A program made the translations under genes and the position numbers. This document shows, piece by piece, positions 1 through 32,000 of a stretch of 32,000 nt of DNA. The notes beneath the pieces are model-generated. The model did no database searches and was not told the origin of the DNA. It saw nothing but the letters and a program-made list of their open reading frames with translations. Positions within the stretch are counted from its first letter, which is position 1; each line of letters begins with the position of its first letter. Source of the DNA: Candidatus Saccharimonadota bacterium (GTDB lineage Bacteria; Patescibacteriota; Saccharimonadia; Saccharimonadales; Saccharimonadaceae); NCBI GenBank assembly GCA_001029695.1, contig CP011211.1:150001-182000 (forward strand). The letters run 5' to 3'.

Positions 1-93
1 AGGTTTTTTCTTGTTGATGACGCGTAGGACACCTTTACGGCGAACTATTTGATCATCGGGACTGATTTTTTTGACACTCGCACGAACTTTCAT
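1..93 (-). CDS. rpmJ: 50S ribosomal protein L36 (bL36); 3' end cut by the window edge
   Basis: Reverse-strand ATG at 93-91. My translation, [31 protein letters not shown], matches the canonical L36 N-terminus. It lies directly downstream of infA. The usual Cys ligand positions are S/D/N. Confidence 0.85.
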
Positions 94-124
94 GAACGTC
101 ACAAACTCCAGTTTTCCGTTAAAT

Positions 125-349
125 TTAATCTCGCAGGCGGAAGCTGATTCTGCCCTTCGTAAGATCGTAAGGGGTCAACTCAACTTCTACCTTATCGCCC
201 GGTACTAGACGGATATAATGCTTTCGCATCTTACCGCTAATGTGGGCAATAATACTATGTCCATTCTCAAGTTCTACCTTAAATTGAGTATTAGGCAGTG
301 CTTCCACTACCTTTCCCTGCAACTTAATTACTTCCTTTTGACTAGCCAT
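125..349 (-). CDS. infA: Translation initiation factor IF-1
   Basis: 74 aa from the internal ATG at 349: [74 protein letters not shown]. This is a typical IF-1 S1-fold sequence. The 28 extra codons in the ORF track have no support. Confidence 0.93.
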
Positions 350-453
350 AGTTAACAGTGGTTGATTATACAGTAAATTTCCCACTACGTAAAGTGTTTT
401 AGTAAATTCCATGTCTCCGAATTTCCGGGACATGGAAAGCTTTGATAGTTCTT

Positions 454-481
454 ATTGTAACAAAGTCAGATCTGACGTCAA
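454..481 (-). promoter_or_regulatory. Putative sigma70-type promoter for infA-rpmJ
   Basis: The minus strand reads TTGACG (481-476), a 16 nt spacer, then TACAAT (459-454), about 100 nt upstream of the infA ATG. Confidence 0.5.
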
Positions 482-495
482 GTTATAACAAATAT

Positions 496-540
496 CTCAT
501 CTCTTCACCCCTAAGCGCAGCTTAGATCCAAAGAGATGAG
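496..540 (-). terminator. Bipartite hairpin downstream of the 139 aa ORF
   Basis: CTCATCTCTT (496-505) pairs with AAGAGATGAG (531-540). An inner stem CTAAGC/GCTTAG (511-516/520-525) sits inside it. An AU-rich tract follows on the minus strand. Confidence 0.45.
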
Positions 541-582
541 GACAGAGGAGAGCGGCTCCAATGAACCTCACCGTTAAAGCAA

Positions 583-1002
583 TTACATATCAGAAAATCG
601 AACATCCCAGCCAAGCCTTAGCCTGTGAGACAGCCCCGAAGGCTCAACTACAGACGCCGAGAACGCTGCTTCAGCACCATAGAACTGGCCTAAGCGAACA
701 GCGAGGTCATTTGCAAATAGGTTACGCTGACCGTCATAAGCGTCAGTAACCCATTTCCCGATATGGCTCACTACTTCTTTATTAAAAACAAATCGTCTAG
801 CAGTCAGGATGTCAAACATATATTTGCCATCGGCCCAAGCAAAGAAGTCATCATTCGGTAGGTTATCCTCATAAGCAAAACCAAGAACAATAACAACTGC
901 ATCTATAACTGGGCGTCTCAGTGCAGCTCTCGCTTCATCAAATTCAAGTGACTTGGCGTATACTCTATGTAACCGTTCGGTAATATGGTTGGATAGTATC
1001 AC
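583..1002 (-). CDS. Hypothetical protein, 139 aa, no domain recognised
   Basis: GTG start at 1002, preceded on the minus strand by AGAGGAGAAGTC (strong SD). It has its own promoter and a downstream hairpin. It occupies the position where adk/map usually sit. Confidence 0.6.
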   Translation of the reverse strand: MILSNHITERLHRVYAKSLEFDEARAALRRPVIDAVVIVLGFAYEDNLPNDDFFAWADGKYMFDILTARRFVFNKEVVSHIGKWVTDAYDGQRNLFANDLAVRLGQFYGAEAAFSASVVEPSGLSHRLRLGWDVRFSDM

Positions 1003-1099
1003 GACTTCTCCTCTGTCAGGTACACTGATCTACTCAACGCCGCTCATCGACTAGATACAGGTGTATTATTCGAGTTGGGCGGAGTGTCCAGATAGATTA

Positions 1100-1128
1100 T
1101 TTATACCATAGACCAGTGAACTCATCAA
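1100..1128 (-). promoter_or_regulatory. Putative promoter for the 139 aa ORF
   Basis: The minus strand reads TTGATG (1128-1123), a 17 nt spacer, then TATAAA (1105-1100). Confidence 0.5.
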
Positions 1129-1173
1129 AGCATAAGACTAATGCAGTGTACGCCAACCTGTAGTCTCTAATGA

Positions 1174-1866
1174 TTAATTGACGGCAACAGCGCGCAGCAT
1201 AACACGTTTGTCAAAGACTTTATCGCGTGGAACCCAGTTGCCGGCACAAGTGATAAGACTAAGACCTTCTTTTGTCGGATCTATCGGAAGCATCATGTTT
1301 TTCATACCAGACTCATTTGCTTCTTTAAGGCTCATCGTTTTGTTCTCAGCGACTTTGTAGGTAATCTTTTTTCCGTCACCGCGTTCGATCATAATCTCGT
1401 CGTCAACCTTAAGCTGACTGAGCTTTGCGAATATACCATCTTTTGTCACACCGCCGTTGTGTCCATCGATTACTACCGCTCCGTAGCCGCTACCAGGAAG
1501 GCCGCTGGCTGTATACCATGCAGTATCATTGATATTTTTTGGCGTATCTAACTGTTTATCTTTTGTGAGACCAACCCCGATAACTCGCGTCTTTTCAACG
1601 CCGATAGCAGGAATTGATATATATCGAGGCTGCGTCGGCGCTACTTTATGATCATTAATCTCTACACCGCTCACAGGCGACTCATCGATGGTAGGATCCG
1701 CCATCGCTGAGGCCGGTACGGGTATGAGTGGCGGCTGTTCGCCTTCTACGTACCATCTGTAGCCAAACCATCCACATGCGACAAGGAGCAGTACACAGAC
1801 CACTAAAGCGATCCAGCTCCCAAACTTACGATCCTTTTTTTGTTGAATAGTTAACCCCGAACTCAT
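1174..1866 (-). CDS. Sortase-family transpeptidase (class E/F-like), N-terminal membrane anchor
   Basis: N-terminal TM segment WIALVVCVLLLVACGWFGY. Catalytic-type motifs VIDGHNGG (His), LSLITCAG (Cys) and RVMLRAV (Arg). I prefer the ATG at 1866; the track's TTG at 1884 is an alternative. Confidence 0.8.
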   Translation of the reverse strand: MSSGLTIQQKKDRKFGSWIALVVCVLLLVACGWFGYRWYVEGEQPPLIPVPASAMADPTIDESPVSGVEINDHKVAPTQPRYISIPAIGVEKTRVIGVGLTKDKQLDTPKNINDTAWYTASGLPGSGYGAVVIDGHNGGVTKDGIFAKLSQLKVDDEIMIERGDGKKITYKVAENKTMSLKEANESGMKNMMLPIDPTKEGLSLITCAGNWVPRDKVFDKRVMLRAVAVN

Positions 1867-1895
1867 ATCTTTTAAGTATAACAACTATACTCATG

Positions 1896-1926
1896 AAAAA
1901 CAGCCTTCCGAGCAAACGAAAGGCTG
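1896..1926 (-). terminator. Intrinsic terminator after secY
   Basis: A 10 bp stem (1901-1910 / 1917-1926, one G-U pair) is followed on the minus strand by TTTTT (1900-1896). Confidence 0.65.
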
Positions 1927-1951
1927 TGATATTTTCAACACGTCGTGCTTC

Positions 1952-3364
1952 TTATTTGTAGTCGTCGTATGTGACCATGAGGGCACGAGAGTTGATCTGA
2001 CGAAGACTTTCTAGTCCAACCGACACAACGATGAGCAGCCCCGTACCGCCAATAGCAAGGTTCTGGATACCCGTTACTCCTGCTTGTGCAAAGATATACT
2101 CTGCGACGAATGGCATAACGGCGATAAGTCCAAGTACGAGAGATCCGAAAAGGATGAGCCGGTTTACTGTTCGGCTAAGGTACTTCTCTGTCTGAATGCC
2201 AGGTCGTACACCTTCGATAAATCCACCTTGCTTCTGAAGGTTCTCTGCGATTTCGTTTGCATTAAAGACGATTCCTGTATAGAAGTAGGTAAATAAGATA
2301 ACGAGGAAGAAATAGGCTGCAGGATAAATTAATGCACTAAGAGTATCGCCCGTAAATGCACCTGGCTGCGGTGCTTGAAACCATGCGATAAGATTGTTTG
2401 CAAGCGTCAGATACTGAGCATCACCAGTCGCCTTTAGGACCTGGCCGACAAATGCAGGAAGTGAAAGGAAGGCTACAGCGAAGATGACAGGGATCACACC
2501 AGCGGCAATGAGCTTTATAGGGAGGATACTCTTTACTCCGCCATAGCTACTATTACCTTGCACGCGCTTGGCGTAGTTAATAGTCACCACACGTTGCGCT
2601 TCGTTGATCTTCACGAGTAGATATAACACCAGCAACGATGCAAGCGATATCGCCAGCGTCACCCAGAACGCGGTTGGATTGACCGGAAGATTAAACCAAC
2701 CGAAGACACTCAGTGAGCCTTGCTCTGTGTTGAATAGTGAGGTGCCAAGCGTACCAAGCGTTGTTGGAAGCTGACTGATAATACCTGCGAAGATAAGCAT
2801 ACTAATACCGTTGCCGATGCCCTGTTCTGTAATAAGCTCACCTAGCCACATAAGAAGGAGCGCACCTGCTGTCATGGCAGTGACCGAAACGACCCACTCC
2901 ATAGGAGTAGCGCTGTCTACGATTGCCGTGTTGCCCGCAAGTACTGACTGACGAAGGATAAAGATAAATGCGATAGACTGGATAATCGCGAGTGGGACAC
3001 TTATCATACGAGTCCACTGGTTGATCTTGCGACGACCTGATTCACCATCTTTATGAAGCTCCTCGAGCTTTGGGATTGCTTTTGTCAGAAGCTGCGTGAT
3101 AATACTTGCGGTGATAAATGGACTCAGCCCTACAAGTACAATAGAGAGTTGTGCAAGCGCACCACCCGAGAGTAGGTTTAGGAATCCACCAAACTCACTT
3201 GCACCGACAACACTCTCGATAGCTTCTTTTAGCTGCGTTGGTTCTGTGAGCGGCACTGGTACATGAGCCAAAAAGCGGTACGCAACCACGAGCCCAAGCA
3301 CAATAAGCAGACGCTTTTGCATGTCCTTGTTTTTAAATGATTTGAGGATTGTTTTCCAGTTCAT
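1952..3364 (-). CDS. secY: Preprotein translocase subunit SecY
   Basis: A 470 aa polytopic protein with typical SecY sequence (…GISPFITASIITQLL…, …GGFIEGVRPG…). It follows rplO as in spc operons. Confidence 0.97.
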   Translation of the reverse strand: MNWKTILKSFKNKDMQKRLLIVLGLVVAYRFLAHVPVPLTEPTQLKEAIESVVGASEFGGFLNLLSGGALAQLSIVLVGLSPFITASIITQLLTKAIPKLEELHKDGESGRRKINQWTRMISVPLAIIQSIAFIFILRQSVLAGNTAIVDSATPMEWVVSVTAMTAGALLLMWLGELITEQGIGNGISMLIFAGIISQLPTTLGTLGTSLFNTEQGSLSVFGWFNLPVNPTAFWVTLAISLASLLVLYLLVKINEAQRVVTINYAKRVQGNSSYGGVKSILPIKLIAAGVIPVIFAVAFLSLPAFVGQVLKATGDAQYLTLANNLIAWFQAPQPGAFTGDTLSALIYPAAYFFLVILFTYFYTGIVFNANEIAENLQKQGGFIEGVRPGIQTEKYLSRTVNRLILFGSLVLGLIAVMPFVAEYIFAQAGVTGIQNLAIGGTGLLIVVSVGLESLRQINSRALMVTYDDYK

Positions 3365-3453
3365 CAGTCTATTCCCTATCTACTTGGTAATTATTACGGC
3401 ATTCCGTAGCACAATACTATACGTATTATACTACGGCCAGCCTAACAATTAAT

Positions 3454-3936
3454 TTATTTGTCGTTCTTTTCAGCTTCTTTTTCAGACTTCTTGAGTGGAG
3501 TAGCGATTTTCTCGAAACTACCACCAGCCTTTGTAACTGCCTCTTGGACGCTCTTTGATGCACCCTGCACCTTAAGAGTTACCTTTTCGGTCAATTCACC
3601 ACGTGCGATAACCTTTACTGCATGGAAAGGAGTTTTGATGTAGCCTTCTTCGAATAGTACGAAGTTGTCGACAGTCTTACCCTTTAGTGCATTCAGGTGA
3701 TCGAGATACACAACCTGAGCTGGAGTACGCTTGCTCTTAAAGCCACGTGCCTTTGGAATAGCTGTCACGAGTGAACGTGAGCCACCCTGGAACATAGCGT
3801 GAAGCTTTTTACCAGTACGCGCGCCCTGACCTTTTGTACCGCGACCAGCAGTTTTACCCTGACCAGCAGCGATACCGCGACCAACGCGTTTGCGGTCTTT
3901 GTTTGCCGTAACTTGGAGTTCGTTGTACTTAGTCAT
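3454..3936 (-). CDS. rplO: 50S ribosomal protein L15 (uL15)
   Basis: Gly/Lys/Arg-rich N-terminus RVGRGIAAGQGKTAGRGTKGQ. Correct position in the spc order. The start overlaps the rpsE stop by 1 nt. Confidence 0.96.
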   Translation of the reverse strand: MTKYNELQVTANKDRKRVGRGIAAGQGKTAGRGTKGQGARTGKKLHAMFQGGSRSLVTAIPKARGFKSKRTPAQVVYLDHLNALKGKTVDNFVLFEEGYIKTPFHAVKVIARGELTEKVTLKVQGASKSVQEAVTKAGGSFEKIATPLKKSEKEAEKNDK

Positions 3937-4520
3937 TACTTAGCCTCCTCTTTGCTTGCTTTCTTAGCAGGCTTTGCATTGAGCCATTGATCTTTAGGAA
4001 CAAGGCTATTCAATGCTTCGATTGTTGCGTAAGCGATGTTTACCTTGTTTGTTGAACCAAGTGACTTTGAAAGCATGTTACGGATACCTGTTACGCCAAT
4101 GATCTGACGAACAACACCACCGGCGATCACACCTGTACCAGGAGCAGCTGGCTTGATAAGCACCTGCGCACCTGAAAGCTTGATCTCAGCATCATGAGGA
4201 ATCGTCTCGTTTGCAACTGGGATTGTGATAAGGTGCTTCTTTGCAACATCAGTTGCTTTTGCAACTGCTGACTGCACATCCTGCCCCTTAGCGACACCAA
4301 CACCAACTTTATTCTTGCGGTTACCTACAACAACCAAAGCCTTGAATCGGAATCGTCGTCCACCCTTTACAACGCGTGAGACACGGTCGATATTGATAAC
4401 AAGTTCTTCGAACTCTTTTGGCTCTTGTGGAGTCTGATCACGGCGGTTGTCACGGCGTGGACCGTTACCGCGAGCCTGACCCTGGCGAGCGTTTGTTGTA
4501 GCTGCTTGTTGTTCAGCCAT
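3936..4520 (-). CDS. rpsE: 30S ribosomal protein S5 (uS5), with basic N-terminal and Lys-rich C-terminal extensions
   Basis: Core sequence VINIDRVSRVVKGGRRFRFKALVVVGN is a typical S5 dsRBD. It sits between rplR and rplO. Confidence 0.96.
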   Translation of the reverse strand: MAEQQAATTNARQGQARGNGPRRDNRRDQTPQEPKEFEELVINIDRVSRVVKGGRRFRFKALVVVGNRKNKVGVGVAKGQDVQSAVAKATDVAKKHLITIPVANETIPHDAEIKLSGAQVLIKPAAPGTGVIAGGVVRQIIGVTGIRNMLSKSLGSTNKVNIAYATIEALNSLVPKDQWLNAKPAKKASKEEAK

Positions 4521-4522
4521 GA

Positions 4523-4876
4523 TTAAAACTCCAATCCTTCCTTACGTGCAGCGTCAGCGAGGGCAGCAAGACGACCAGCGTACTGGCGACCGTTGCGATC
4601 AAATACGACTGCAGTAATTTTAGCTTTCTTAGCCTTTTTCGCGATATCTGTACCAACGAAAGCAGCCTGCTCAGCGATTGAGCCAGTTTGCTTCGTACCA
4701 ACAGTCGTGCTTGCAGCAATAGTATGCTGTTTCACGTCATCGATAAGCTGAGCACTTACGTGCTTGTTGCTGATAGTAACCGTCAGACGTGGACGCTCTG
4801 CAGTGCCACTAATCTTTGCGCGAACGCGATTCTTGCGAAGACTCTTGTTGAGAAGTTTCTTAGCGAGGTCTGCCAT
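4523..4876 (-). CDS. rplR: 50S ribosomal protein L18 (uL18)
   Basis: 117 aa, RPRLTVTISNKHVSAQLIDD…VFDRNGRQYAGRLAALADAARKEGLEF. Correct position in the spc order. Confidence 0.96.
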   Translation of the reverse strand: MADLAKKLLNKSLRKNRVRAKISGTAERPRLTVTISNKHVSAQLIDDVKQHTIAASTTVGTKQTGSIAEQAAFVGTDIAKKAKKAKITAVVFDRNGRQYAGRLAALADAARKEGLEF

Positions 4877-4878
4877 GA

Positions 4879-5412
4879 TTATTTACCAGCCTTTCCTGCT
4901 TTTCGAAGTACAACTTCGTCAGCATACTTAATTCCCTTACCCTTGTATGGTTCAGGTTTCTTGAGGGCACGGATTTCAGCTGCGACCTGGCCGACTTGCT
5001 GCTTGTCAATACCGCTCACGATAATGTTCATCTTTTCCGTTGCAATTGTTACGCCAGCTGGAGCTTCGTACTTAACTGGGTGTGAAAAGCCAAGACTCAT
5101 TTCAAGTACAGGACCACTCATACCGACACGGAAACCGACGCCATTTACTTCTAGTTTTTTCTCAAATCCCTTAACAACGCCTTCAACAGCGTTGAAAAGA
5201 AGTGAGCGCTGCAAACCGTGCTGCGCTTTGGCAACGCGCTGGTCATCCTTGCGTGTCACGATTGCCTGTGTACCAACGAGCTCCACAGTCACGTCACTCA
5301 GATGTGGTACAGCTAGTTCGCCCTTAGGCCCCTTAACTGAAATAACATCTGAATCAATCGTGATTGTCACACCTGTAGGTACGTCAATTGGTAGTTTTCC
5401 GATTCGACTCAT
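4879..5412 (-). CDS. rplF: 50S ribosomal protein L6 (uL6)
   Basis: Starts MSRIGKLPIDVPTGVTI… and ends …KPEPYKGKGIKYADEVV. Correct position in the spc order. Confidence 0.96.
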   Translation of the reverse strand: MSRIGKLPIDVPTGVTITIDSDVISVKGPKGELAVPHLSDVTVELVGTQAIVTRKDDQRVAKAQHGLQRSLLFNAVEGVVKGFEKKLEVNGVGFRVGMSGPVLEMSLGFSHPVKYEAPAGVTIATEKMNIIVSGIDKQQVGQVAAEIRALKKPEPYKGKGIKYADEVVLRKAGKAGK

Positions 5413-5533
5413 CTTACTTCTCTTTCTTGTTATCGTTGTCTGACCGTTTTTTTCGGTCTACGACACCATATCCAATATAGTTATGGAAAAACTCCACTAT
5501 AGCGAATACGAATGCGTATACCTTTTGTATCAC

Positions 5534-5935
5534 TTAGTACACCTTAAGGAGTAGCTCACCGCCAAGACGCTGTTTAACAGCTTCGTGACCAGTGATAACA
5601 CCCTTGCTCGTACTGATAAGGACAAGTCCACGACCACTTTTGATGCGTGGAATGTCATCAGCACCAACATACACACGGCGACCTGGCTTTGAAAGGCGTG
5701 TGATCTCATTGATCGTGCAGTTCTCACCTGGCTTGTTGATAGTGATAACCAGCGTATCGCGTGGCTTACCAGCTTCAACCTTGACGTCTGTAAGGTACTT
5801 GTTTTTCTTTAGTTGCTCAGCAACTGTCTTTTTCATCTTGCTTGCTGGAACACGAACTTCGTGCTTGCCAACCATTGCCGCATTACGAATGCGGGTGAGA
5901 AGGTCGGCGATTGGGTCAGTTGATTGTAGTGACAT
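5534..5935 (-). CDS. rpsH: 30S ribosomal protein S8 (uS8)
   Basis: Contains DPIADLLTRIRNA… and …GGELLLKVY. Correct position in the spc order. Confidence 0.96.
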   Translation of the reverse strand: MSLQSTDPIADLLTRIRNAAMVGKHEVRVPASKMKKTVAEQLKKNKYLTDVKVEAGKPRDTLVITINKPGENCTINEITRLSKPGRRVYVGADDIPRIKSGRGLVLISTSKGVITGHEAVKQRLGGELLLKVY

Positions 5936-5955
5936 ATCTTAAATTCCTTTCCTTC

Positions 5956-6225
5956 TTACCAACTACTTTTCGTAATACCTGGGATTTCTCCCTTAGAGGC
6001 TTTTTCGCGGAAGCTAATTCGGCTAAGGCCAAACTTACGCATATATCCACGAGGACGACCATCAAGTGCATCGCGGTTCTTCCAACGGCTCGGTGAGCTG
6101 TTTTTTGGAAGCGCCTGAAGTCCTTCGAGGTCACCGAGCTCTTTGAGCTCAGCACGCTTTGCAGCATACTTCGTGATCATTTTCTTACGCTTTTCGTCGC
6201 GTGCGATCATAGATTTCTTAGCCAT
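5956..6225 (-). CDS. rpsN: 30S ribosomal protein S14 (uS14), long 89 aa non-zinc form
   Basis: Starts [15 protein letters not shown]… and ends …[27 protein letters not shown], with no CxxC pairs. It lies between rplE and rpsH. Confidence 0.94.
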
Positions 6226-6803
6226 TAGCGTCGGCCTCCTTCTTTCTCAAATGGTATGCCAAATTTCTCAAGAAGCGCACGGCTGTGAGCTGGGTCTTGA
6301 TTCTTAATAGCAAAGGTAAGCTGAAGTCCGTGAAGTACTTGCGTCTCCTCGAAAGTAAGCTCTGGGAAGATTGATTGCTCAATGATTCCTAGGTTGTAGT
6401 TACCACCCTTATCGAATTTAGTACCGACACCGTGGAAGTCACGAACGCGAGGCAATGAGACATTGACAAGACGGTCGAGGAATTCGTACATACGAGCACC
6501 ACGAAGTGTGACGCTCACGCCTACTGGCGCACCCATGTTTGCACGGATCTTGAATCCAGCGATAGATTTTTTAGCAAGACGCTCAACTGGCATCTGGCCT
6601 GTAATCTTTGTGACGGTATTCTTTACAGTTTCAAGGTGACGTTTGTCATCCTTGCTCTTACCAGTTCCTACGCTGACCACAATTTTCTCGAGCTTAGGTA
6701 CTTGATGTACATTTTCGAGGTTCAATTCGGCCTGGAGTTCTTTGACGTACTGAGTAGCGTACAAAGCTTTCAAGCGAGGAGCGGTAGTAGTAGCTTTTGC
6801 CAT
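6225..6803 (-). CDS. rplE: 50S ribosomal protein L5 (uL5)
   Basis: 192 aa, …[14 protein letters not shown]… and …[15 protein letters not shown]…. Correct position in the spc order. Confidence 0.96.
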
Positions 6804-7126
6804 TACTTAATCTCCTTGTTCTTTGCCTGACGCGCAAGACGAATCTTTGCACCATCAGCATTAGTACTGTAGCCAACACGACTTGTTGTTGCAGCTTTTT
6901 CGTCGATAACGAGTGCTACTTTATGAAGTGGTGTTGGAACATGAATGTCTTTTGTGCCACCACGTGGGTTAAGCTGGCTTGGCTTAACTTTACGGTGAGA
7001 CACACCGATACCTTCGACAAGTACAGCATTCTTCTTTGTAAGAACCTTTACTACCTTACCGGTAGTGCCTTTGTTGTCGCCGCTAATAAGCTTAACGATG
7101 TCATCTTTTTGAATACGATGAGCCAT
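6803..7126 (-). CDS. rplX: 50S ribosomal protein L24 (uL24)
   Basis: KOW-type N-terminus IQKDDIVKLISGDNKGTTGKVVKV. It lies between rplN and rplE. Confidence 0.95.
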   Translation of the reverse strand: MAHRIQKDDIVKLISGDNKGTTGKVVKVLTKKNAVLVEGIGVSHRKVKPSQLNPRGGTKDIHVPTPLHKVALVIDEKAATTSRVGYSTNADGAKIRLARQAKNKEIK

Positions 7127-7127
7127 A

Positions 7128-7496
7128 TTAGAGTACCTCCGGTGCTAGGCTAATAATCTTTGCGTAGCCCATGTCACGTAGTTCACGTGGCACAGGACCA
7201 AAGACACGTGTGCCTTTAGGGTTCTTATCGTCGTTGATAATAACAGCAGCGTTATCATCAAAGGCGATCGTACTACCATCTTTACGATGAATTTGATCAC
7301 GAGTACGCACGACAACAGCTTTAACAACTGTTTTTCGCTTGACGGTACCCGTTGAACTAGCTTGCTTGACGGTAGCGACAATAATGTCACCAACACGTGC
7401 ATAGCGACGCTTCGTTCCACCAAGTACGCGAATACAAAGGATTTCCTTTGCACCCGAGTTGTCGGTGACTTTAAGACGAGTTTCTTGTTGAATCAT
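7128..7496 (-). CDS. rplN: 50S ribosomal protein L14 (uL14)
   Basis: Starts [18 protein letters not shown]… and ends …[10 protein letters not shown], 122 aa. Confidence 0.97.
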
Positions 7497-7774: not shown

Positions 7775-7775
7775 A

Positions 7776-8012: not shown

Positions 8013-8014
8013 GA

Positions 8015-25115: not shown

Positions 25116-25184
25116 GAAGTGTGTTCTTCCTATCTTCTTTTTAATTACTGCTATTTTGAGACATAAAAAATAGCGCTTAGCTCT

Positions 25185-25193
25185 ATTGTAACA
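25185..25193 (-). promoter_or_regulatory. Possible extended -10 promoter for fusA
   Basis: The minus strand reads TGtTACAAT, about 70 nt upstream of the fusA ATG. There is no good -35 element. Confidence 0.35.
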
Positions 25194-25255
25194 GATTGCT
25201 GCACTTTATTCCAGGCCTTCTGGTTGCGCGGTGGTGTATACTCGTAGTAGTCACT

Positions 25256-25987
25256 ATGTACAAAAAATATGGCAACAAATTTATGTGCTTTTCTCCGCCG
25301 GTTATGCTGGCAACATTTTTTATTGAATTCGCTTTTGCTTTCTATGTAATATGGCGCTACAAAATGACGACAATTACTCGCCTTGTTACAGCAACACTTT
25401 TAACCCTAGGTACTTTCCAGCTGGCAGAGTATATGATTTGCGGTGGGCTTGGGTGGACACATGTCGAGTGGGCTCGCCTTGGATATGCCTCTATCGTGCT
25501 ACTCCCCGCTCTTGGTATTCATCTTATCGTGGCGCTCGCGGGCAAGAAAGCACCGCTGCTCGTCACCAGCGCATACGCAAGCTGCCTGGCATTTGCTGCG
25601 TTCTTTACACTTGCCGGCGGGGCGATCACAGGACAAGAGTGTCGTGCTAACTATGCGTATTTTGATACACACGACGCAAGCGTTATCCCATTTGCACTCT
25701 ATTACTATGGATGGATGCTCACAGGAACACTACTCGCCTGGAAATGGAGCGGCAAAGCATCGAAAAAAGCGGAAGCCCTCCAGTGGATGTCTATCGGATA
25801 CCTCCTCTTCATGCTGCCGACAACCACCGTCAATATCATTGATCCGTCAACTATTTCCGGTATTCCGTCAATTATGTGCGGCTTTGCGGTACTCCTCGCG
25901 TTTGCACTCGTCGTGAAAGTTATGCCAAATAGCCAGGTGCCCGTACGCCGCTCCCTACAATCAGTTAAGCAGCGTTTCGGGATATGA
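25256..25987 (+). CDS. Polytopic membrane protein, 243 aa, about 7 TM segments, unknown family
   Basis: First in-frame ATG at 25256; the track's TTG is at 25196. The stop overlaps the PAP2 start (ATGA). Start uncertain. Confidence 0.6.
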   Translation: MYKKYGNKFMCFSPPVMLATFFIEFAFAFYVIWRYKMTTITRLVTATLLTLGTFQLAEYMICGGLGWTHVEWARLGYASIVLLPALGIHLIVALAGKKAPLLVTSAYASCLAFAAFFTLAGGAITGQECRANYAYFDTHDASVIPFALYYYGWMLTGTLLAWKWSGKASKKAEALQWMSIGYLLFMLPTTTVNIIDPSTISGIPSIMCGFAVLLAFALVVKVMPNSQVPVRRSLQSVKQRFGI

Positions 25988-26508
25988 AACGATACCTTCA
26001 CCATTTTGATAAAGTATTTATCGCACTTATCGCGAAGGTACCTTTATCATTCCGACCACTCATGCTCTTTGGGACGCTGATCGGCCAACCTCCAATAACA
26101 ATAGGTATTGCGCTCATCGTCATTGGCTATGGATTTATCGAGACAGATCATCTCTTCGTCACGTCAGGCATCATAGCGCTCCTTACTATCCTTACGAGCA
26201 GTATACTAAAGCTTGCGCTTCGCCGAGCGCGACCAGACAACGACTATGTAAAAAGTATGCTCGTACAAACATTTAGCTTTCCAAGTGGCCACGCGGCAGG
26301 AACACTCGTCAGCTTTGGGCTTCTCGTGGTCCTCTATAGCCAAAGTCTTGGAGCGTGGACAATACCTATCACACTCGCGACTACTGCACTCTGCGCGATC
26401 GTTGGTGTATCTCGCGTGTATCTTGGCGCCCATTATCCCAGTGACGTCATAGGTGGCTGGATAGTTGGAGGGCTAGGGATTCTCGCTATTATGGCGGTTA
26501 GTATATGA
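25984..26508 (+). CDS. PAP2-superfamily lipid phosphatase (undecaprenyl-diphosphatase / phosphatidate phosphatase type)
   Basis: The three PAP2 motifs are present: KLALRRARP, PSGHA and SRVYLGAHYPSDV. It is a membrane protein. Confidence 0.85.
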   Translation: MKRYLHHFDKVFIALIAKVPLSFRPLMLFGTLIGQPPITIGIALIVIGYGFIETDHLFVTSGIIALLTILTSSILKLALRRARPDNDYVKSMLVQTFSFPSGHAAGTLVSFGLLVVLYSQSLGAWTIPITLATTALCAIVGVSRVYLGAHYPSDVIGGWIVGGLGILAIMAVSI

Positions 26509-27371
26509 AAAAAAATGTCACTATTGCTGCACTTGTATACAATCCGAAGTCAGGAAGCGCGCTCACAAAAGACCAGCTAGGTGAAGTATTTGAATCTCAT
26601 AATATATCTATTGGAGCATTTATTGCGATATCCGATACCCTACCCGAAGACCTTGCGCCCTATATCAAAAAAAATGCACTCATCGCCGCCATTGGCGGAG
26701 ACGGCACACTAAGCGCAGTAGCCGGTGTTCTTACGGGAACAGAATCGATTTTTGCCCCCCTTTCTGGAGGTACTCTCAATCACTTCACGAAAGATCTTGG
26801 CATCAAGCAAGACCTAAATGAGGCAGTCGAAGCCATTCTCAATGCAAAGCCACAAACGATAGATGTCGCTTCAATAAACGACACAGTCTTTATTAATAAC
26901 TCTAGCCTAGGACTATACCCTTCGTCCCTACAAGTGAGGGGCCAGCTCGAAGACAGGCTCGGCAAGTGGCCATCCGCGGTGATTGGAGTAATCCGTGCTT
27001 TTGTGCAGTTTCGCTCATACCATCTTACAATCAATAAGACTTCTTTTGATACTCCATTCATTTTCGTCGGAAACAATGACTATCATCTTGATACTCTCGA
27101 AGGGTCGCGAACATCACTCAACGAAGGCTTATTGTCGGTCTATGTTATATCCTCAAACAGTCGCTTCACACTCTTAAAGCTACTTCCTTACGCCCTCATC
27201 GGGAAGCTAAACGATCATGATGCATTTCATACCTACCACACAACATCGTTTACTATCAGCAGCAAGCGCCCTGCTATAAGTATCTCTCACGATGGCGAGC
27301 TCAGTAAGTTCGAAACACCTCTTACGTACGCGATCATTAAAGATGGACTACGTATTATCGGAAATTCGTAA
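26505..27371 (+). CDS. Diacylglycerol-kinase-catalytic-domain lipid kinase (YegS/BmrU-like)
   Basis: AAIGGDGTLSAV (GGDGT motif) and the overall DAGK_cat layout. ATGA overlap with the PAP2 gene. Confidence 0.8.
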   Translation: MKKNVTIAALVYNPKSGSALTKDQLGEVFESHNISIGAFIAISDTLPEDLAPYIKKNALIAAIGGDGTLSAVAGVLTGTESIFAPLSGGTLNHFTKDLGIKQDLNEAVEAILNAKPQTIDVASINDTVFINNSSLGLYPSSLQVRGQLEDRLGKWPSAVIGVIRAFVQFRSYHLTINKTSFDTPFIFVGNNDYHLDTLEGSRTSLNEGLLSVYVISSNSRFTLLKLLPYALIGKLNDHDAFHTYHTTSFTISSKRPAISISHDGELSKFETPLTYAIIKDGLRIIGNS

Positions 27372-27849
27372 AGGCTGTCACGAAGTCAAAATCCGCTCCA
27401 CGGACCGCATTCATCACCGCTTGAAGATCATCCTTACTCCCACTCGTAATTCGAACTGCTTCACCTTGGATTTGGGCTTTTACTTTCGGAAACTGCTCTT
27501 TTAGAAGTTTAGTAATCTTCTTTGCCTTATCTTGATCAAGACCCTCGATAAATGGAACTTCTTTCGTAGCTTTGAGGTTGTTTTCGTGCACTTCTTTTGA
27601 GAGGTCAAGCACTTTACTGCTCAGTTCACGAGTAGCGAGTTTTTTGCGAACAATATCGAGTACGGCGTCAATCTGCCACTCGTTACTACCTGAGATCTTG
27701 AGACCTTTTTTATCCGCTAGCCACTCAATGGCAGCTGGCGTTCCCTTGAAATCAAATCGAGTACTGATTTCTTTTTCTGTTTGACCAAAGACATTATTCA
27801 TCTCTGCTTTATCGTATTCACTTACTATATCAAAACTAAATGTCGCCAT
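27355..27849 (-). CDS. yajQ: YajQ-family nucleotide-binding protein (UPF0234)
   Basis: MATFSFDIVSEYDKAEMNNV…TRFDFKGT…, 164 aa, a typical YajQ sequence. Its 3' end overlaps the convergent kinase gene by 17 nt. Confidence 0.85.
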   Translation of the reverse strand: MATFSFDIVSEYDKAEMNNVFGQTEKEISTRFDFKGTPAAIEWLADKKGLKISGSNEWQIDAVLDIVRKKLATRELSSKVLDLSKEVHENNLKATKEVPFIEGLDQDKAKKITKLLKEQFPKVKAQIQGEAVRITSGSKDDLQAVMNAVRGADFDFVTAFTNFR

Positions 27850-27860
27850 ATTCTATCCTT

Positions 27861-28211
27861 TTACTTTCTCAAAACCTGGGCAGCTGCAGTCAATCCCCAG
27901 CCTGCAAGTAGGTAGATAAATATTGCGATGATCGTTTCAAACTCAAGTCGTGCACGTCCGTACTGAAACTCACCTACCTGCAGCAAACCGCGAAAAGGCT
28001 CTACGAATATATATGTCGTGTTATAGATGAACGTTGCAAAGCCGTTTGTCTGATCGACACCAATAAGCGAGAAGACTACTCGAATAATCAAAAGAATAAC
28101 AATAATAGTAACGAGCAGCCAAATAATTTGGATGATTTTAGATAAAACCCCTCCTACTCCTGGTGAAGCTCTTCGAGGTGCGGGCACTGGTGTCTGTTGG
28201 TCTGGATTCAT
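27861..28211 (-). CDS. YggT-like small membrane protein
   Basis: Two TM segments flank IYNTTYIFVEPFRGLL, which resembles the YggT motif. GGAG lies 6 nt before the ATG at 28211; the ATG at 28217 directly abuts the SD. Confidence 0.55.
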   Translation of the reverse strand: MNPDQQTPVPAPRRASPGVGGVLSKIIQIIWLLVTIIVILLIIRVVFSLIGVDQTNGFATFIYNTTYIFVEPFRGLLQVGEFQYGRARLEFETIIAIFIYLLAGWGLTAAAQVLRK

Positions 28212-28278
28212 GTTCATCTCCTATTTTCTATTACTATACCACAGTAGCAGCGTCGAGATGCCATAGTAAGCCGGTCGG

Positions 28279-29175
28279 TCATGGAAGATGGTTGCCACCG
28301 GTCACCCCTATCACCTCACTTGTTATATAGCTCGACTCCTGCGACGCCAGAAAGACATAAGTTGGCGCAAGCTCAGCCGGCTGACCGGCTCGGCCAACCG
28401 GAGTATTTTTACCAAATTGTGTAAGTTTTTTCATCGGCTGTCCATAGCTTGGCTGGAGTGGAGTCCAGATAGGACCTGGGGCGACCGCATTCACACGAAT
28501 ACCTCGACTCGCTAACTGCTTGCCGAGTCCGTGAGTAAAAGCAGTAATCGCACCCTTAGTTGACGCATAGTCGATGAGCCCAGGTGAAGGCTGGTATGAT
28601 TGGATCGATGTCGTATTGATGATAGAGGCGCCAGCAGGTAGATACTTCAGTGCAGCTTTTGTAATCCAAAACATAGCAAATACATTTGTTCTAAAGGTCG
28701 ACTCAAACTGGTCGGCATCAAGATCTTCTAGTTTCTCAACATACAATTGGCGACCTGCGTTATTGACGAGTATATCGATACCGCCTAGCTTACTAGCAGC
28801 CTCCTCCACAAGCTGTTTTGAGAAAGCTTCGTCTGAGATATCACCAGGAATCGCAACAGCCATGCACCCTTCAGCTTCGATAAGTGCAATAACCTCATCA
28901 GCATCCGCTTGTTCACTAGGAAGATACGACAAAGCGATATCCGCCCCCTCTCTCGCATACGCAATCGCGACAGCGCGGCCAATACCCGAATCTGCACCTG
29001 TAATGAGGGCCTTTCTACCTTTTAATCGCTCAGCACCTCTATAGGTCTTCTCTCCATGGTCCGCCAAAGGAATCAACTTGCTATCAAGACCTGGCTCCTC
29101 TTGACGTTGCTCAGGTATATCAAGATCGGGATACTGCGTTACTGGATTTTGCATTGCATATTGGTTCTTTGTCAT
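28279..29175 (-). CDS. Short-chain dehydrogenase/reductase, YghA/YhdF-like
   Basis: TGADSGIGRA, NNAG and YASTKGA motifs, with the N-terminal extension typical of this SDR subgroup. SD GGAGGTAATTTT. Confidence 0.88.
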   Translation of the reverse strand: MTKNQYAMQNPVTQYPDLDIPEQRQEEPGLDSKLIPLADHGEKTYRGAERLKGRKALITGADSGIGRAVAIAYAREGADIALSYLPSEQADADEVIALIEAEGCMAVAIPGDISDEAFSKQLVEEAASKLGGIDILVNNAGRQLYVEKLEDLDADQFESTFRTNVFAMFWITKAALKYLPAGASIINTTSIQSYQPSPGLIDYASTKGAITAFTHGLGKQLASRGIRVNAVAPGPIWTPLQPSYGQPMKKLTQFGKNTPVGRAGQPAELAPTYVFLASQESSYITSEVIGVTGGNHLP

Positions 29176-29241
29176 AAAATTACCTCCATACCCTAGATTA
29201 CAAGGAGTAAATTTGCGGGTCAGTAAGATTTTTTACGTATA

Positions 29242-29277
29242 TAAAAAACAACCTCCGTTGATAAAACGGAGGTTGTT
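29242..29277 (-). terminator. Strong intrinsic terminator after rpsG
   Basis: Perfect 13 bp stem AACAACCTCCGTT (29247-29259) / AACGGAGGTTGTT (29265-29277). On the minus strand the terminal TT of the 3' arm begins the run TTTTTT. Confidence 0.8.
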
Positions 29278-29296
29278 GATTGCAGAAAGTATCGTA

Positions 29297-29776
29297 CTAT
29301 CCGCGGGCAAAGTGTGCAAACGCGCGGTTTGCTTCTGCCATTTTGTGTGTGTCTTCTTTTTTCTTGTAAGCAGCGCCGGCTTCGTTATGAGCATCAATAA
29401 TCTCAAGCGCAAGACGCTTAGAATATGGCATACCCTTACGAGCACGTGCAGCCTGGACGAGCCAGCTATACGCGAAGTGAAGTTGACGGTGACCAGCCAC
29501 CGGGAAAGGAATCTGGTAGTTTGCACCACCAACACGTCGAGATTTGACTTCGAAGTTTGGTGAAACATTCTTAAGTGCTTTTTCAAACACTGCAAGTGGA
29601 TCTTCTGAATCAAGCTTCTTAGCAGCTTGTTCGAGCGCAGCATACACTGCACGCTCAGAAACAAGTTTTTTGCCGTCAAGCATAGACTTGTTGATAAGAC
29701 GCTGTACAAGTACAGACTGGTATTTACGATCTGGTGAAAGAACGCGTTGTAGACTCTTCGTTACTTTACGAGGCAT
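29297..29776 (-). CDS. rpsG: 30S ribosomal protein S7 (uS7)
   Basis: 159 aa, MPRKVTKSLQRVLSPDRKYQS…NRAFAHFA. Confidence 0.97.
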   Translation of the reverse strand: MPRKVTKSLQRVLSPDRKYQSVLVQRLINKSMLDGKKLVSERAVYAALEQAAKKLDSEDPLAVFEKALKNVSPNFEVKSRRVGGANYQIPFPVAGHRQLHFAYSWLVQAARARKGMPYSKRLALEIIDAHNEAGAAYKKKEDTHKMAEANRAFAHFARG

Positions 29777-29778
29777 GA

Positions 29779-30192
29779 CTACTTATCCTCCTTCTTAGCG
29801 CCGTACTTAGAGCGGCCTTGTTTGCGTTTTGCGACACCCTGAAGGTCGAGCGCACCACGAACGATATGGTAACGAACACCTGGAAGATCTGGTACACGAC
29901 CACCACGGACAAGCACAACGGCGTGCTCCTGGAGGTTATGACCTTCACCACCGATATATGCCCAAACTTCTTGGCCATTTGTAAGTCGCACACGTGCAAC
30001 CTTACGGAGCGCCGAGTTTGGCTTCTTTGGTGTTTTTGTTGTTACCTTGATACAAACACCACGCTTAAGTGGACTTGTCTGCTCGTAGTAACGAACCTTT
30101 AGTGCGTTATGGATACGACCAAGCGCAGGTGACTTCGACTTTTTCGCCGCAGTCTTGCGTGGCTTACGCACCAATTGATTGATTGTTGGCAT
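29779..30192 (-). CDS. rpsL: 30S ribosomal protein S12 (uS12)
   Basis: 137 aa from the ATG at 30192: [13 protein letters not shown]…[17 protein letters not shown]…. The 10 upstream codons in the track are rejected. Confidence 0.97.
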
Positions 30193-30357
30193 TGTTATGC
30201 AACTCCCTTGGTAATTTAACATTCTTTATAGAGACAAGAAATCGTCTCTGGTACGAGTTGGATTCAGCAGCTCCGCCTCGTGTCATACTACAAAACTTTA
30301 GTTCACGCGTACACATTCAATGCGTTTACTAATTTTCGTAGAGGAAACTCATCTGAC

Positions 30358-30386
30358 AGTATAGCAAATTATTTGCTTTTTAACAA
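30358..30386 (-). promoter_or_regulatory. Promoter of rpsL-rpsG, with a leader of about 160 nt
   Basis: The minus strand reads TTGTTA (30386-30381), a 17 nt spacer, then TATACT (30363-30358). The spacer contains the palindrome GCAAAT-t-ATTTGC. Confidence 0.5.
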
Positions 30387-30417
30387 TAAGACTACGGCGA
30401 TTATGCCGTAGTCTTAT
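30386..30417 (-). terminator. Perfect 13 bp hairpin insulating the upstream cassette from the rpsL promoter
   Basis: ATAAGACTACGGC (30386-30398) pairs with GCCGTAGTCTTAT (30405-30417), loop 6 nt. Only a weak U-tract follows. Confidence 0.45.
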
Positions 30418-30504
30418 AATCATTCGAAAGTGAGCCTGCCAAAAGGAGCTCATGCTACGAATATCTCCATTCGTGAGCAGGCTCAACTTTCGGCAGGGTT
30501 GTAC

Positions 30505-30843
30505 TCATGCAGCAGGGTTTTTCAATCGATCACCAATTTGAGCGCTGATCTCCTCTATCTCTTGGCGCGCTGGTGAGTTTTCGGCGAGAATCTCATTGAA
30601 ACTCCCAATAAGTGTCCTCGCGATGAACCTGTACTTTGCACATGTTGGCTGCTTTTCCGAATCACTACGGATCCTGTACAGCTCGTCATATACACCTCTT
30701 GCGTCGTAAGCCATGAGTAATTCATGCAGCTTCTCGCCATGATGGCGATTGAAATCCTCGTGACGATCTAGTGCTTTACGTATTACATCGAACCAAGGTC
30801 GATAAACACTACTCACCAGGTCCTGAGAAAATACTTTACTCAT
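30505..30843 (-). CDS. Hypothetical protein, 112 aa, predicted helical
   Basis: ATG at 30843, 5 nt after the stop of the 64 aa ORF. No domain recognised. Confidence 0.55.
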   Translation of the reverse strand: MSKVFSQDLVSSVYRPWFDVIRKALDRHEDFNRHHGEKLHELLMAYDARGVYDELYRIRSDSEKQPTCAKYRFIARTLIGSFNEILAENSPARQEIEEISAQIGDRLKNPAA

Positions 30844-30848
30844 AAAGA

Positions 30849-31043
30849 TCACCCTGTTTCGATTGCACTCGTGTTCAAAGTTGGCTCGTCCGACTTTTCA
30901 TTGTCGAGCAAGGCAAGAACACCAGTTGGTTGTATCACGGCAGCGTCGTAGCTATTGTTCGCCAAAGCCGCGCGAGTGAAGTGTCCTACAGTTACTTCGG
31001 TATCCGTCCTACTAAAAGGAGGGACCACTCTTCTGCATGACAT
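30849..31043 (-). CDS. Hypothetical small protein, 64 aa
   Basis: ATG preceded by AAGGAGACGTA (strong SD). It has its own promoter. Confidence 0.55.
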   Translation of the reverse strand: MSCRRVVPPFSRTDTEVTVGHFTRAALANNSYDAAVIQPTGVLALLDNEKSDEPTLNTSAIETG

Positions 31044-31094
31044 TACGTCTCCTTATGCTGAGTAGACATGTACTTACCTGTATGGTACCTTCTT

Positions 31095-31123
31095 ATAATA
31101 ACCCCTTGTACTTGCGGTTTCAA
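31095..31123 (-). promoter_or_regulatory. Promoter of the 64 aa / 112 aa pair
   Basis: The minus strand reads TTGAAA (31123-31118), a 17 nt spacer, then TATTAT (31100-31095). Confidence 0.5.
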
Positions 31124-31221
31124 CCACTTTCATGGTTTTTGTAAGATTTCTTACTGCGAGACTCGTCGATATGATCGCCGAGCGGCTAACAATAAACCAG
31201 TCCGAGTAAACGACTACATCT

Positions 31222-31252
31222 AAAAAACACCCGCATCGAGCGGGTGTTTTTT
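31222..31252 (-). terminator. Intrinsic terminator after rpoC
   Basis: ACACCCG (31227-31233) pairs with CGGGTGT (31241-31247), flanked by A and T runs, 16 nt downstream of the rpoC stop. Confidence 0.75.
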
Positions 31253-31267
31253 AGAAGAGTAAAAACT

Positions 31268-32000
31268 CTACTCTGCGATGTCGAGGATCTCTTCGACTTC
31301 AACTTCCGTAATAACTTCCTCAGGAGTATTAACAATCGCACCAGTTCCCACAGGGATCTTACGTCCGATGATAACATTCTCCTTGAGTCCGTGAAGACGG
31401 TCAGCGCGTCCACTTGTTGCTGCGCTAATCAAGACACGAGTCGTATCTTGGAATGACGCTGCAGAAAGCCAACTATCGCTCCAGATCGATACCTTCGTGA
31501 TACCGAGGAGTAGCTGCGTATACTGCACAAGTTCTTGGCCGCGTGCCGCGAGTTCTGCGTTTGCATCGACGACTGCAGCTTTTGATACGATATCGCCAGT
31601 TACAAACGTGCTCTCGCCTGGATCTTCCACCTGAACACGACTGAACATCTGTCGCACAATGATCTCAAGGTGCTTGTCAGCAACATCTTGACCCTGTGCC
31701 GCATAGATGCGCAGTACTTCGTTAATGATGTAACGTTGAGTCGCCTCAGTACCCTTAAGTCGCATGAGATCATGCAAGTTCAGTGATCCGATAGTGAGAC
31801 GATCACCCGCCTCAACCTGATCATTCGCTCGAACAACAAGTTGCGTGTTGCCTGGAATCTCGTAACGTACTGGTGCGCCTGCGTTTGCAGCAAGTACCAA
31901 TGTGTCTTCAGCAACCTCTACGACACCATCAAATGGCGCAACGAGCGGTCGAGCTTCACCTTCGCTTGATGCAAGAACGTCACCAACCTTTACATTACTT
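31268..32000 (-). CDS. rpoC: RNA polymerase beta' subunit, C-terminal part; the 5' end lies beyond the window
   Basis: The frame is open to position 32000. …SAASFQDTTRVLISAATSGRADRLHGLKENVIIGRKIPVGTG… is the conserved beta' C-terminal region. Confidence 0.95.
   Translation of the reverse strand, partial: SNVKVGDVLASSEGEARPLVAPFDGVVEVAEDTLVLAANAGAPVRYEIPGNTQLVVRANDQVEAGDRLTIGSLNLHDLMRLKGTEATQRYIINEVLRIYAAQGQDVADKHLEIIVRQMFSRVQVEDPGESTFVTGDIVSKAAVVDANAELAARGQELVQYTQLLLGITKVSIWSDSWLSAASFQDTTRVLISAATSGRADRLHGLKENVIIGRKIPVGTGAIVNTPEEVITEVEVEEILDIAE

Follow-up and report, generated by a model that had tools for sequence, protein, structure and literature searches.

How can a gene order stay fixed while the genes themselves lie kilobases apart? 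The supercluster rpoBC-str-S10-spc-alpha provides a textbook case of a gene order that has been constant over billions of years, and it is the content of the stretch of DNA analysed here: 32,000 nucleotides (nt) from an ultra-small groundwater Saccharibacterium that belongs to the Candidate Phyla Radiation (CPR, or Patescibacteria), namely positions 150,001 to 182,000 of contig CP011211.1 in assembly GCA_001029695.1, which we call the window. The core genes rpoC, rpsL, rpsG, fusA, tuf, rpsJ, rplC...rplO, secY and infA follow each other in the canonical order and on the minus strand throughout, and six gaps between them sum to 16,224 nt, or 50.7% of the window. We think it fairly probable that the cluster is made of separately transcribed fragments with exchangeable slots between them, and that the contents of these slots are swapped by homologous recombination in the conserved flanks.

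The gap sizes were computed from the table of open reading frames (ORFs) and their translations, with starts at 30192 for rpsL, 12143 for rplC and 349 for infA. Numbered from rpoC onwards, the slots are slot 1 between rpoC and rpsL (30193..31267, 1075 nt), slot 2 between rpsG and fusA (25116..29296, 4181 nt), slot 3 between fusA and tuf (20384..23018, 2635 nt), slot 4 between tuf and rpsJ (16713..19198, 2486 nt), slot 5 between rpsJ and rplC (12144..16388, 4245 nt) and slot 6 between secY and infA (350..1951, 1602 nt). Slots 2, 3 and 5 break the contiguity within an operon. A first-pass annotation, made from the sequence alone, had listed the same six gaps; its values are reproduced to the base and the flanking genes are those that it named.

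IF-1, SecY, L3, S10, S7, S12, EF-Tu and EF-G were identified with Pfam, and the 3' end of rpoC (31268..32000) by its translation and its homology to the rpoC of related loci. It is followed on the minus strand by the rpsL-rpsG fragment (29297..30192, Pfam), whose internal junction measures 2 nt (2-124 nt in 14 loci), then by fusA (23019..25115), which has a 698-aa product with all EF-G domains and a ratio of non-synonymous to synonymous substitution rates (dN/dS) of 0 between strains, by tuf (19199..20383, from translation and homology) and by rpsJ, a fragment of a single gene (16389..16712, Pfam). The next fragment, rplC-rplD-rplW-rplB-rpsS-rplV-rpsC-rplP-rpmC-rpsQ-rplN-rplX-rplE-rpsN-rpsH-rplF-rplR-rpsE-rplO-secY (1952..12143, from ORFs and gene tables), is unbroken. 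The window ends with infA (125-349, Pfam) and the start of rpmJ (about 1-93), the opening of a tight infA-rpmJ-rpsM-rpsK-rpsD-rpoA-rplQ-rplM-rpsI block that is known from the gene tables of relatives. The ORF table has no L30 (rpmD) ORF between rpsE and rplO, where the rpsE end at 3936 abuts the rplO start at 3936; L30 is reported as absent in CPR bacteria, and the window fits this. Rfam and tRNA scans of the whole window gave no matches and no tRNA or tmRNA genes; no known ribosomal protein leader or other RNA accounts for the spacers.

The best relatives of Tuf, RpsJ and InfA come from metagenome-assembled genomes (MAGs) of Saccharibacteria. Contigs of a groundwater data set match the window at 100% identity, and at least ten further assemblies (NCBI, ENA, JGI, Logan) are 97-99% identical, several of them on contigs of 0.3-0.9 Mb. 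Since the same layout is seen in many independent assemblies, it is not an assembly artefact.

Next, we asked whether the fragments have the borders of transcription units. A hairpin with a U-run stands directly 3' of the stop codon at six of six fragment ends, with fold z-scores from -2.9 to -6.9. Five of these terminators are on the minus strand: the one after rpoC (31219-31255; -32 kcal/mol, z = -6.9), the one after rpsG (29247-29277; 13-bp stem and U-run, z = -5.3), the palindromic one after fusA (22969-23003; z = -5.7), whose minus-strand U-run is weaker than in the other five, the one after tuf (19141-19190; a 17-bp stem between A- and U-runs, z = -6.2) and the one after secY (1900-1927; from scan and fold). 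The sixth, after rpsJ (16340-16372), is a perfect palindrome with 16/16 complementary positions and an A-run and a T-run at its sides; it is bidirectional and serves also the convergent plus-strand ORF 15956-16309. Terminator-like sites are found above chance, with 22 against 13.4 expected in 1-16500 and 27 against 13.7 in 16000-32000. All six terminator positions proposed in the first pass fall into these strong hairpins.

The six proposed promoters held up less uniformly. Four pass a sigma-70 consensus scan as promoter-like sites: those of rpsL (30358-30386), tuf (20454-20482), rplC (12253-12281) and infA (454-481). The sites of fusA (-10 end at 25185) and rpsJ (-10 end at 16806) have a good -10 but match the -35 in only 3/6 positions. 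In addition, there are three divergent promoter regions that core and slot genes have in common, namely rplC/12421, rpsJ/16953 and fusA/25256 (here and below, slot ORFs may be named by one coordinate). Judged by terminators, promoter-like sites and divergent promoter regions, each conserved fragment seems to be transcribed as a unit of its own. An analogy comes from experiments in cultivated Saccharibacteria, in which the promoter and terminator of tuf and the promoter of rpsJ, all from strain TM7x, function as stand-alone expression elements (PMC10633639).

To see whether the split is a property of this genome or of its lineage, we collected relatives anchored on Tuf (species-representative genomes) and on RpsJ (metagenome contigs), which gave about 85 loci from Saccharibacteria. 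Five junctions are usually wide. The rpoC/rpsL gap has a median of 715 nt (range 215-3409, n = 11) and exceeds 300 nt in 73% of the loci; for rpsG/fusA the median is 835 nt (5-2969, n = 15; 73% above 300 nt), for fusA/tuf 1528 nt (112-6999, n = 34; 85%) and for tuf/rpsJ 917 nt (157-4830, n = 60; 78%). The rpsJ/rplC gap, with a median of 1399 nt (519-6567), is above 300 nt in all loci (39/39, 100%). Their 20 neighbours, that is, rpsL/rpsG and the nineteen junctions from rplC to secY, are tight in the same census, with medians of 2-128 nt and gaps above 300 nt in 0-6% of the loci. Loci from other phyla, about 75 in number, have medians of 48 nt for rpsG/fusA, 97 nt for fusA/tuf, 116 nt for tuf/rpsJ and 90 nt for rpsJ/rplC, and two loci from other CPR bacteria, L005 (gaps of 18-228 nt) and L073, are compact. 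Being wide in Saccharibacteria and compact in these other CPR loci, the gaps are a property of the lineage and not of this genome, a point that goes against the first-pass annotation. It had taken the rpoC/rpsL junction to be normally tight, and this is not the case: the junction is loose elsewhere too, its median being 500 nt across 16 control bacteria. A terminator follows tuf in 12 of the 14 Saccharibacteria loci that have a short tuf/rpsJ gap; thus the border of the tuf unit is older than the cargo.

The sixth slot was studied in ten loci that encode an identical InfA (L168-L177). The secY/infA junction normally holds adk and map, and both are simply missing from it in 10/10 of these loci, which qualifies its description as one more tight junction that received an insertion. 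Its content varies as well: some loci have a sortase, alone or accompanied by another ORF, and others have unrelated small ORFs. Two side observations were made in the same loci. The next junction after the tight infA...rplQ-rplM-rpsI block, rpsI/trpS, is again variable and carries, depending on the locus, a pentapeptide protein, a hydrolase, an MmeI-type restriction enzyme or a pilin-like protein; and in L169 and L176 the rplO/secY junction, tight in the other loci, has a 136-aa ORF (2326-2736) inserted.

Differences in slot content can be seen even within the species. Between the compared strains, whose flanks are 97-100% identical, there is one indel of 4 kb, and four cassettes have been replaced with sharp borders; the identity breakpoints are abrupt and all changes lie inside slots. 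In slot 5, the segment 13345-14649 (ORFs 13702 and 14238) is swapped for an unrelated 155-aa ORF and a homologue of 14238 with 25% identity, and in L085 the segment 12299-12749 (ORF 12421) is swapped for an unrelated 114-aa ORF. In slot 4 of L086, an unrelated 107-aa ORF takes the place of 17424-17929 (ORF 17558), and in slot 1 of sister strains 517 unrelated nt with a 93-aa ORF take the place of 30505-31072. The 4.0-kb insertion is located at 31195/31196, just 3' of the rpoC terminator, in six assemblies (L178, L180, L182, L184, L186 and L187, positions 1628-5632). It encodes proteins of 209 aa, 381 aa (with WxLIP_PGBD and LysM domains), 579 aa and 118 aa, and looks like a cell-surface gene cluster.

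Two further comparisons concern single alleles. At 13346-13522 the 155-aa gene has left a decayed remnant (30% identity over 59 aa, E = 1e-4), whereas the sister strains L082 and L086 have the intact gene at the same place; the remnant shows gene decay inside a slot. In L081 (GCA_015999845.1), the gene 25256-25987 is 78% identical to that of the window, with 126 synonymous differences and a dN/dS of 0.08, and the fusA and PAP2 genes beside it are 97-99% identical; from these values, the L081 allele looks like an import by recombination. We also considered a diversity-generating retroelement as the source of the 25%-identical allele and dropped it, since the divergence spans the promoter, the whole ORF and indels, and not a short variable region.

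What do the slots contain? Clear domains were found in about half of the slot genes with Pfam. Slot 2 has genes on both strands (Pfam, NCBIfam): on the minus strand an SDR gene (28279-29175), YggT (27861-28217) and YajQ/DUF520 (27355-27849), and on the plus strand a DAGK-like lipid kinase (26505-27371), PAP2 (25984-26508) and a membrane protein (25256-25987). Slot 3, on the minus strand, carries an orphan (22450-22887), a DUF998 membrane protein (21211-22284, Pfam) and a 224-aa protein (20494-21168), and its ORFs have dN/dS values of 0.01-0.19. Slot 5 combines old residents and orphan cassettes on both strands. Its residents are the plus-strand gene 15956-16309, which by its sequence has a Lys/Ala-rich N-terminal half followed by a hydrophobic segment, a small membrane protein on the minus strand (15503-15844) and an LdcB/VanY-type carboxypeptidase on the plus strand (14725-15501; Pfam/NCBIfam). 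Slot 6, on the minus strand and without adk and map, holds a sortase (1174-1866; Pfam/NCBIfam) and an orphan (583-1002).

The remaining ORFs are orphans: four in slot 4, four in slot 5, two in slot 1, two in slot 3 and one in slot 6, none of which has a match in Pfam. Those of slot 1 are on the minus strand (30849-31043 and 30505-30852). Slot 4 consists of four monocistronic orphan ORFs on the plus strand (16953-17252, 17558-17899, 18102/17994-18503 and 18690-19079) that have no match in Pfam, PHROGs or PADLOC, and the orphan cassettes of slot 5 are likewise on the plus strand (12421-12720, 12903-13244, 13702-14055 and 14238-14636). Scans of ten orphan ORFs against PHROGs and PADLOC gave nothing significant, which leaves the idea that the orphans are phage-derived or belong to known defence systems unsupported, and searches of phage and plasmid DNA with slots 4 and 5 returned only rpsJ and vanY. 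The idea that the orphans form one expanded family of small proteins was dropped as well: the sole related pair among them is 13702 and 14238 (E of about 1e-4 to 1e-5). In searches of 5.8 billion proteins, the 14238/13702 family and the 18690 protein were found in their own species only. The 20494 protein belongs to a small, lineage-restricted family with 43 representatives, none of which lies within the fusA/tuf gaps of the sampled loci. An AlphaFold2 model of the 14238 family is all-beta, with a mean pLDDT of 54.8, and too poor for a fold search.

The tested slot ORFs stay open between strains and without indels, and their dN/dS is mostly 0.01-0.57, for example 0.06-0.10 for 18690-19079 and about 0.05 for 20494-21168; the orphans of slot 4 are free of stops and indels with values of 0.05-0.57. 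ORF 13702-14055 has a dN/dS of about 1.2. Because of the intact frames and the mostly low ratios, most of the slot ORFs are real genes under purifying selection. Their composition is not deviant (GC content 0.442-0.459 against 0.473 in the core), so that the proposed comparison of GC content and codon usage does not set them apart as foreign: their codon adaptation to the ribosomal protein set is lower than that of the core, and this is expected of weakly expressed native genes. Beside the paralogous ORFs 13702 and 14238 we noted a palindromic, operator-like sequence, TCATCAnnnnnnTGATGA, at 13639-13656 and 14175-14192, between the promoter-like element and the start codon, and a related operator-like site is present in the divergent L082 allele. 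These candidate operator sites suggest a shared repressor.

We then looked at the borders of the cassettes. A terminator module of about 37 nt, ..TCGTCGAG..CTCCGnnnAGGCGGAGTTTT, occurs in four copies on the plus strand (13297-13329, 14093-14129, 14660-14696 and 19081-19117), each after a plus-strand orphan ORF. It consists of a GC stem and a T-run and is confined to loci of its own species; the strict pattern has 3 matches where 0.02 would be expected by chance. Both breakpoints of the 13345-14649 swap coincide with copies of the module. The whole 17558 cassette, in turn, is enclosed by inverted repeats (17417-17435 and 17918-17936), of which the L086 replacement allele has kept an 8-nt core, GGACAGAG/CTCTGTCC, with its own complementary extension added. 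In the predicted mRNA of the cassette these repeats form a long-range stem that closes the 5' and 3' ends (z = -6.7), and they could serve as an mRNA-stabilising stem or as a recombination signal. As a general cassette-end motif GGACAGAG was discarded, with just 3 copies in the window, which is not above chance.

How much of the cargo is shared among Saccharibacteria? From the gaps of the sampled loci we took 301 ORFs, called mechanically from 80 aa upwards (>=80 aa). They form 212 clusters; 188 clusters are singletons, some of which are possibly spurious because of the mechanical calling. In a Pfam census of 150 cluster representatives we found 53 different families and no integrase; among them are LDH, amylases, a pyridoxal-phosphate (PLP) enzyme, ThrE, a Na/H exchanger, glycosyltransferases and pilin-like proteins. 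Once the nucleotide identity of tuf drops below about 88%, the DNA in the gaps is essentially unalignable. Only three families are widespread, and with two exceptions all of their members are in the rpsJ/rplC gap: relatives of 15956-16309 in 22 loci, the membrane protein 15503-15844 in 18 and VanY/LdcB in 14. Parts of the block of PAP2, DAGK, YajQ, YggT and membrane-protein genes again stand beside fusA in L090, L100, L105 and L126. As a side observation, an IS200-like (Y1_Tnp) transposase is encoded in the tuf/rpsJ gap of L001, a related Saccharibacteria MAG (2229-2858), the sole mobility gene in the slots surveyed.

The first-pass annotation had called about half of the window accessory and had seen in the cluster a repeated landing site for lineage-specific genes. 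Overall, this interpretation is partly supported. The slots are variable, with mostly unrelated cargo at the five wide junctions and variation at secY/infA too. "Accessory", however, is true at the deeper taxonomic levels only, as nearly the whole 16.2 kb is conserved within the species, where purifying selection acts on it; and not everything in the slots is recent cargo, since the LdcB/VanY gene and two small membrane-protein genes are present in 14-22 loci and the PAP2-DAGK-YajQ-YggT-membrane-protein block recurs beside fusA in several. To this extent the relatives share slot genes, a finding that the first pass had named as speaking for an ancient fixed arrangement.

The explanation that we favour is as follows. 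The cluster has kept its ancestral order and strand but would be split into ...rpoC, rpsL-rpsG, fusA, tuf, rpsJ, rplC...secY and infA..., where each fragment would stop at its own intrinsic terminator and restart from its own promoter. The six spaces would then be permissive slots without a polar cost of insertion, because an insertion there interrupts no essential co-transcription. Their cargo would have two layers. One would consist of old residents, mainly genes for the cell envelope and for lipids (LdcB/VanY, small membrane proteins, PAP2, the DAGK-like kinase, YajQ, YggT, SDR and sortase). The other would consist of units with a fast turnover, for the most part orphan ORFs of about 100-170 aa that are monocistronic and seem each to carry a promoter-like element and a terminator hairpin of their own; in tuf/rpsJ and rpsJ/rplC these units are on the opposite strand. 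The sharp cassette replacements and the 4-kb indel would mean that turnover continues within the species. Incoming DNA would probably be exchanged by homologous recombination, anchored in the conserved translation genes and in the shared terminator modules, and occasional activity of insertion sequences (IS) may contribute. Saccharibacteria are naturally competent, and linear DNA is taken up and recombined through flanks of about 1 kb (PMC10633639).

Several points weigh against this explanation. The promoter-like sites as a class are not above chance, with 17 against 22.1 expected in 1-16500 and 25 against 23.0 in 16000-32000; as they are not enriched over shuffled sequence, they are consistent with separate units but no proof of them. 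Transcription could also read through the terminators, so that the separation of the units is to be taken as predicted. Nor is the split universal: in 4 of 5 compact Saccharibacteria loci, fusA/tuf is short and without a terminator. Several of the differences between strains track the sub-lineages A and B, and the independent events are about 4-5 and no more. That the changes are due to recombination is suggested by sharp breakpoints alone, with one candidate tract: in L086 (contig ERZ27247813:k141_183343), a block of ribosomal protein genes at 82% identity, rplV-rplC (window 8843-12150) is 70-85% identical to the window, while the adjacent slot and rpsJ-tuf-fusA are 96-100% identical. This block lies at the end of its contig, and is suggestive of either import by recombination or a chimeric assembly. 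Finally, the slots are "hot spots" only relative to the neighbouring junctions, where insertions would be lethal anyway; these tight junctions lie between essential genes whose frames overlap or nearly abut.

In a rival explanation, nothing special happens in the slots. In slow-growing episymbionts with small populations, selection for contiguity may be relaxed, and genes would passively drift into tolerant intergenic sites; the six junctions would be the only sites where insertion is not lethal, without being hot spots, and the cargo would have no special relation to the locus. Some of the cargo is indeed housekeeping-like and part of it is kept in place across the lineage, its composition is native, and the tight junctions mostly measure 2-20 nt, where no insertion could survive. 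In Salmonella, a growth-rate cost upholds the contiguity of the operons (PMC6735719), and such a cost could be weak in CPR bacteria. However, about five structural changes among some 10 strains at most 3% apart (<=3%), all of them in 16 kb of slots, are much for drift. Sharp breakpoints that coincide with shared terminator modules, and a cargo in which 188 of 212 clusters are singletons, are not what drift would lead one to expect either, and we see passive erosion as possible but unlikely. A different rival holds that transposases, or an integron-like recombinase that uses the repeated hairpins or the inverted repeats at cassette ends, insert the cargo at specific sites. The Y1 transposase of L001, the inverted repeats that bound 17424-17929, with matching arms of its own in the L086 allele, and the hairpin module repeated at cassette ends all could be read in this way. 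On the other hand, as the first pass had noticed, there is no integrase, recombinase or transposase domain in the scanned slot ORFs (Pfam, PHROGs, PADLOC, NCBIfam), and the L001 gene is the only one in the cargo census of the relatives. The window has no tRNA genes and no long direct repeats that bracket the slots, and neither target-site duplications at the 4-kb indel or the cassette borders nor clear direct repeats at the 4-kb insertion were found. Moreover, the hairpin module is species-specific and resembles an ordinary terminator, and the inverted repeat is read equally well as a stem closing the mRNA. We regard this mechanism as very unlikely.

We find it scarcely credible that the pattern is produced by mis-assembly of MAGs, or that the slots are decaying non-coding DNA with chance frames. 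It is true that many slot ORFs have no homologue outside the species, that one spacer contains a decayed remnant and that 13702-14055 has a dN/dS of about 1.2. But over ten assemblies, made independently and kept in four repositories, have the identical layout, the tested ORFs are open and free of indels, most of them with a dN/dS well below 1, and half of the slot genes have clear Pfam domains. There is also an idea that goes beyond the explanation that we favour: the supercluster, as the most conserved DNA of Saccharibacteria, may be a fixed scaffold with about six integrase-free slots, where small orphan genes would preferentially be taken up, tried out and exchanged. We hold this to be doubtful. 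If it were true, the flanks, near-identical across strains and species, would let transformed DNA recombine even between diverged lineages, the exchange would work in self-contained promoter-ORF-terminator units, some of them enclosed by inverted repeats that are specific to the allele, and the orphans would possibly be host-interaction or immunity factors of the epibiotic lifestyle.

It is instructive to compare the locus to known systems. Flexible genomic islets of the "replacement" type are exchange hot spots that are flanked by core genes, classically large and with surface-glycan genes. As in our locus, non-homologous genes occupy a fixed site in near-identical strains, with abrupt breakpoints and no mobility genes, and exchange is presumed to go through homologous recombination in the flanks; the slots, however, are several, small (0.5-5 kb), placed among the most conserved genes and filled mainly with single small orphans. 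In cyanobacteria, plastids and archaea, rpsJ stands after tuf and shares a transcript with the str genes, the remainder of S10 being elsewhere. Both there and here rpsJ is apart from rplC and its adjacency to tuf is kept, but here rpsJ is isolated between two slots and rplC comes next in the canonical order. With the cassette arrays of integrons the likeness is only functional: short, promoter-proximal units of a single ORF, hairpin repeats and block swaps. Here, IntI is missing, as is any attI or attC consensus; the repeats look like terminators and are confined to the species, and each unit apparently has its own promoter-like element and terminator hairpin, as judged from the consensus scan and the repeat analysis. 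Classical mobile genomic islands differ by an integrase, which is not found in the scanned slot ORFs, and by a tRNA or tmRNA site, long flanking direct repeats and a deviant composition, none of which is found in the window.

The closest cases come from earlier studies of the supercluster, where insertions are mostly between operons and rare against the selection for contiguity (PMC6735719, PMC8046335). The examples described there are single events: tusDCB in rpoBC/str, bfd-bfr in str/S10 and nrdHEF at rplL/rsmC. These cases resemble ours in that insertions at junctions of the same collinear cluster bring in ordinary chromosomal genes while order and strand are kept, that there is no sign of distant transfer, that transposable elements are rarely involved and that the unit borders consist of terminators and promoters. 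They differ in that here four broken junctions are inside the str and S10 operons (rpsG/fusA, fusA/tuf and rpsJ/rplC) or at str/S10, that most members of a lineage at class level have these breaks and that cargo turnover reaches down to the strain level. What we see is the same kind of event as the known insertions taken much further, with junctions internal to str and S10 open across a class-level lineage. In our literature searches we found no description of such an arrangement in Saccharibacteria.

The arrangement has practical consequences. Binning and phylogenomics that assume 16 syntenic ribosomal proteins on one short stretch call for caution here, given that the distance from rpsJ to rplC can be several kb. 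For work with cultivated Saccharibacteria, the slots suggest themselves as places where genetic tools could be inserted and tolerated well, and they are a concentrated pool of lineage-restricted CPR orphans, which can be found in metagenomes by means of the tuf, rpsJ and fusA anchors. Most of all, the locus indicates that the constraint on contiguity can be lifted without scrambling the order, with four or five internal junctions routinely open, and it lets the idea of "operon concatenation" be put to a natural test in episymbionts that grow slowly and have reduced genomes.

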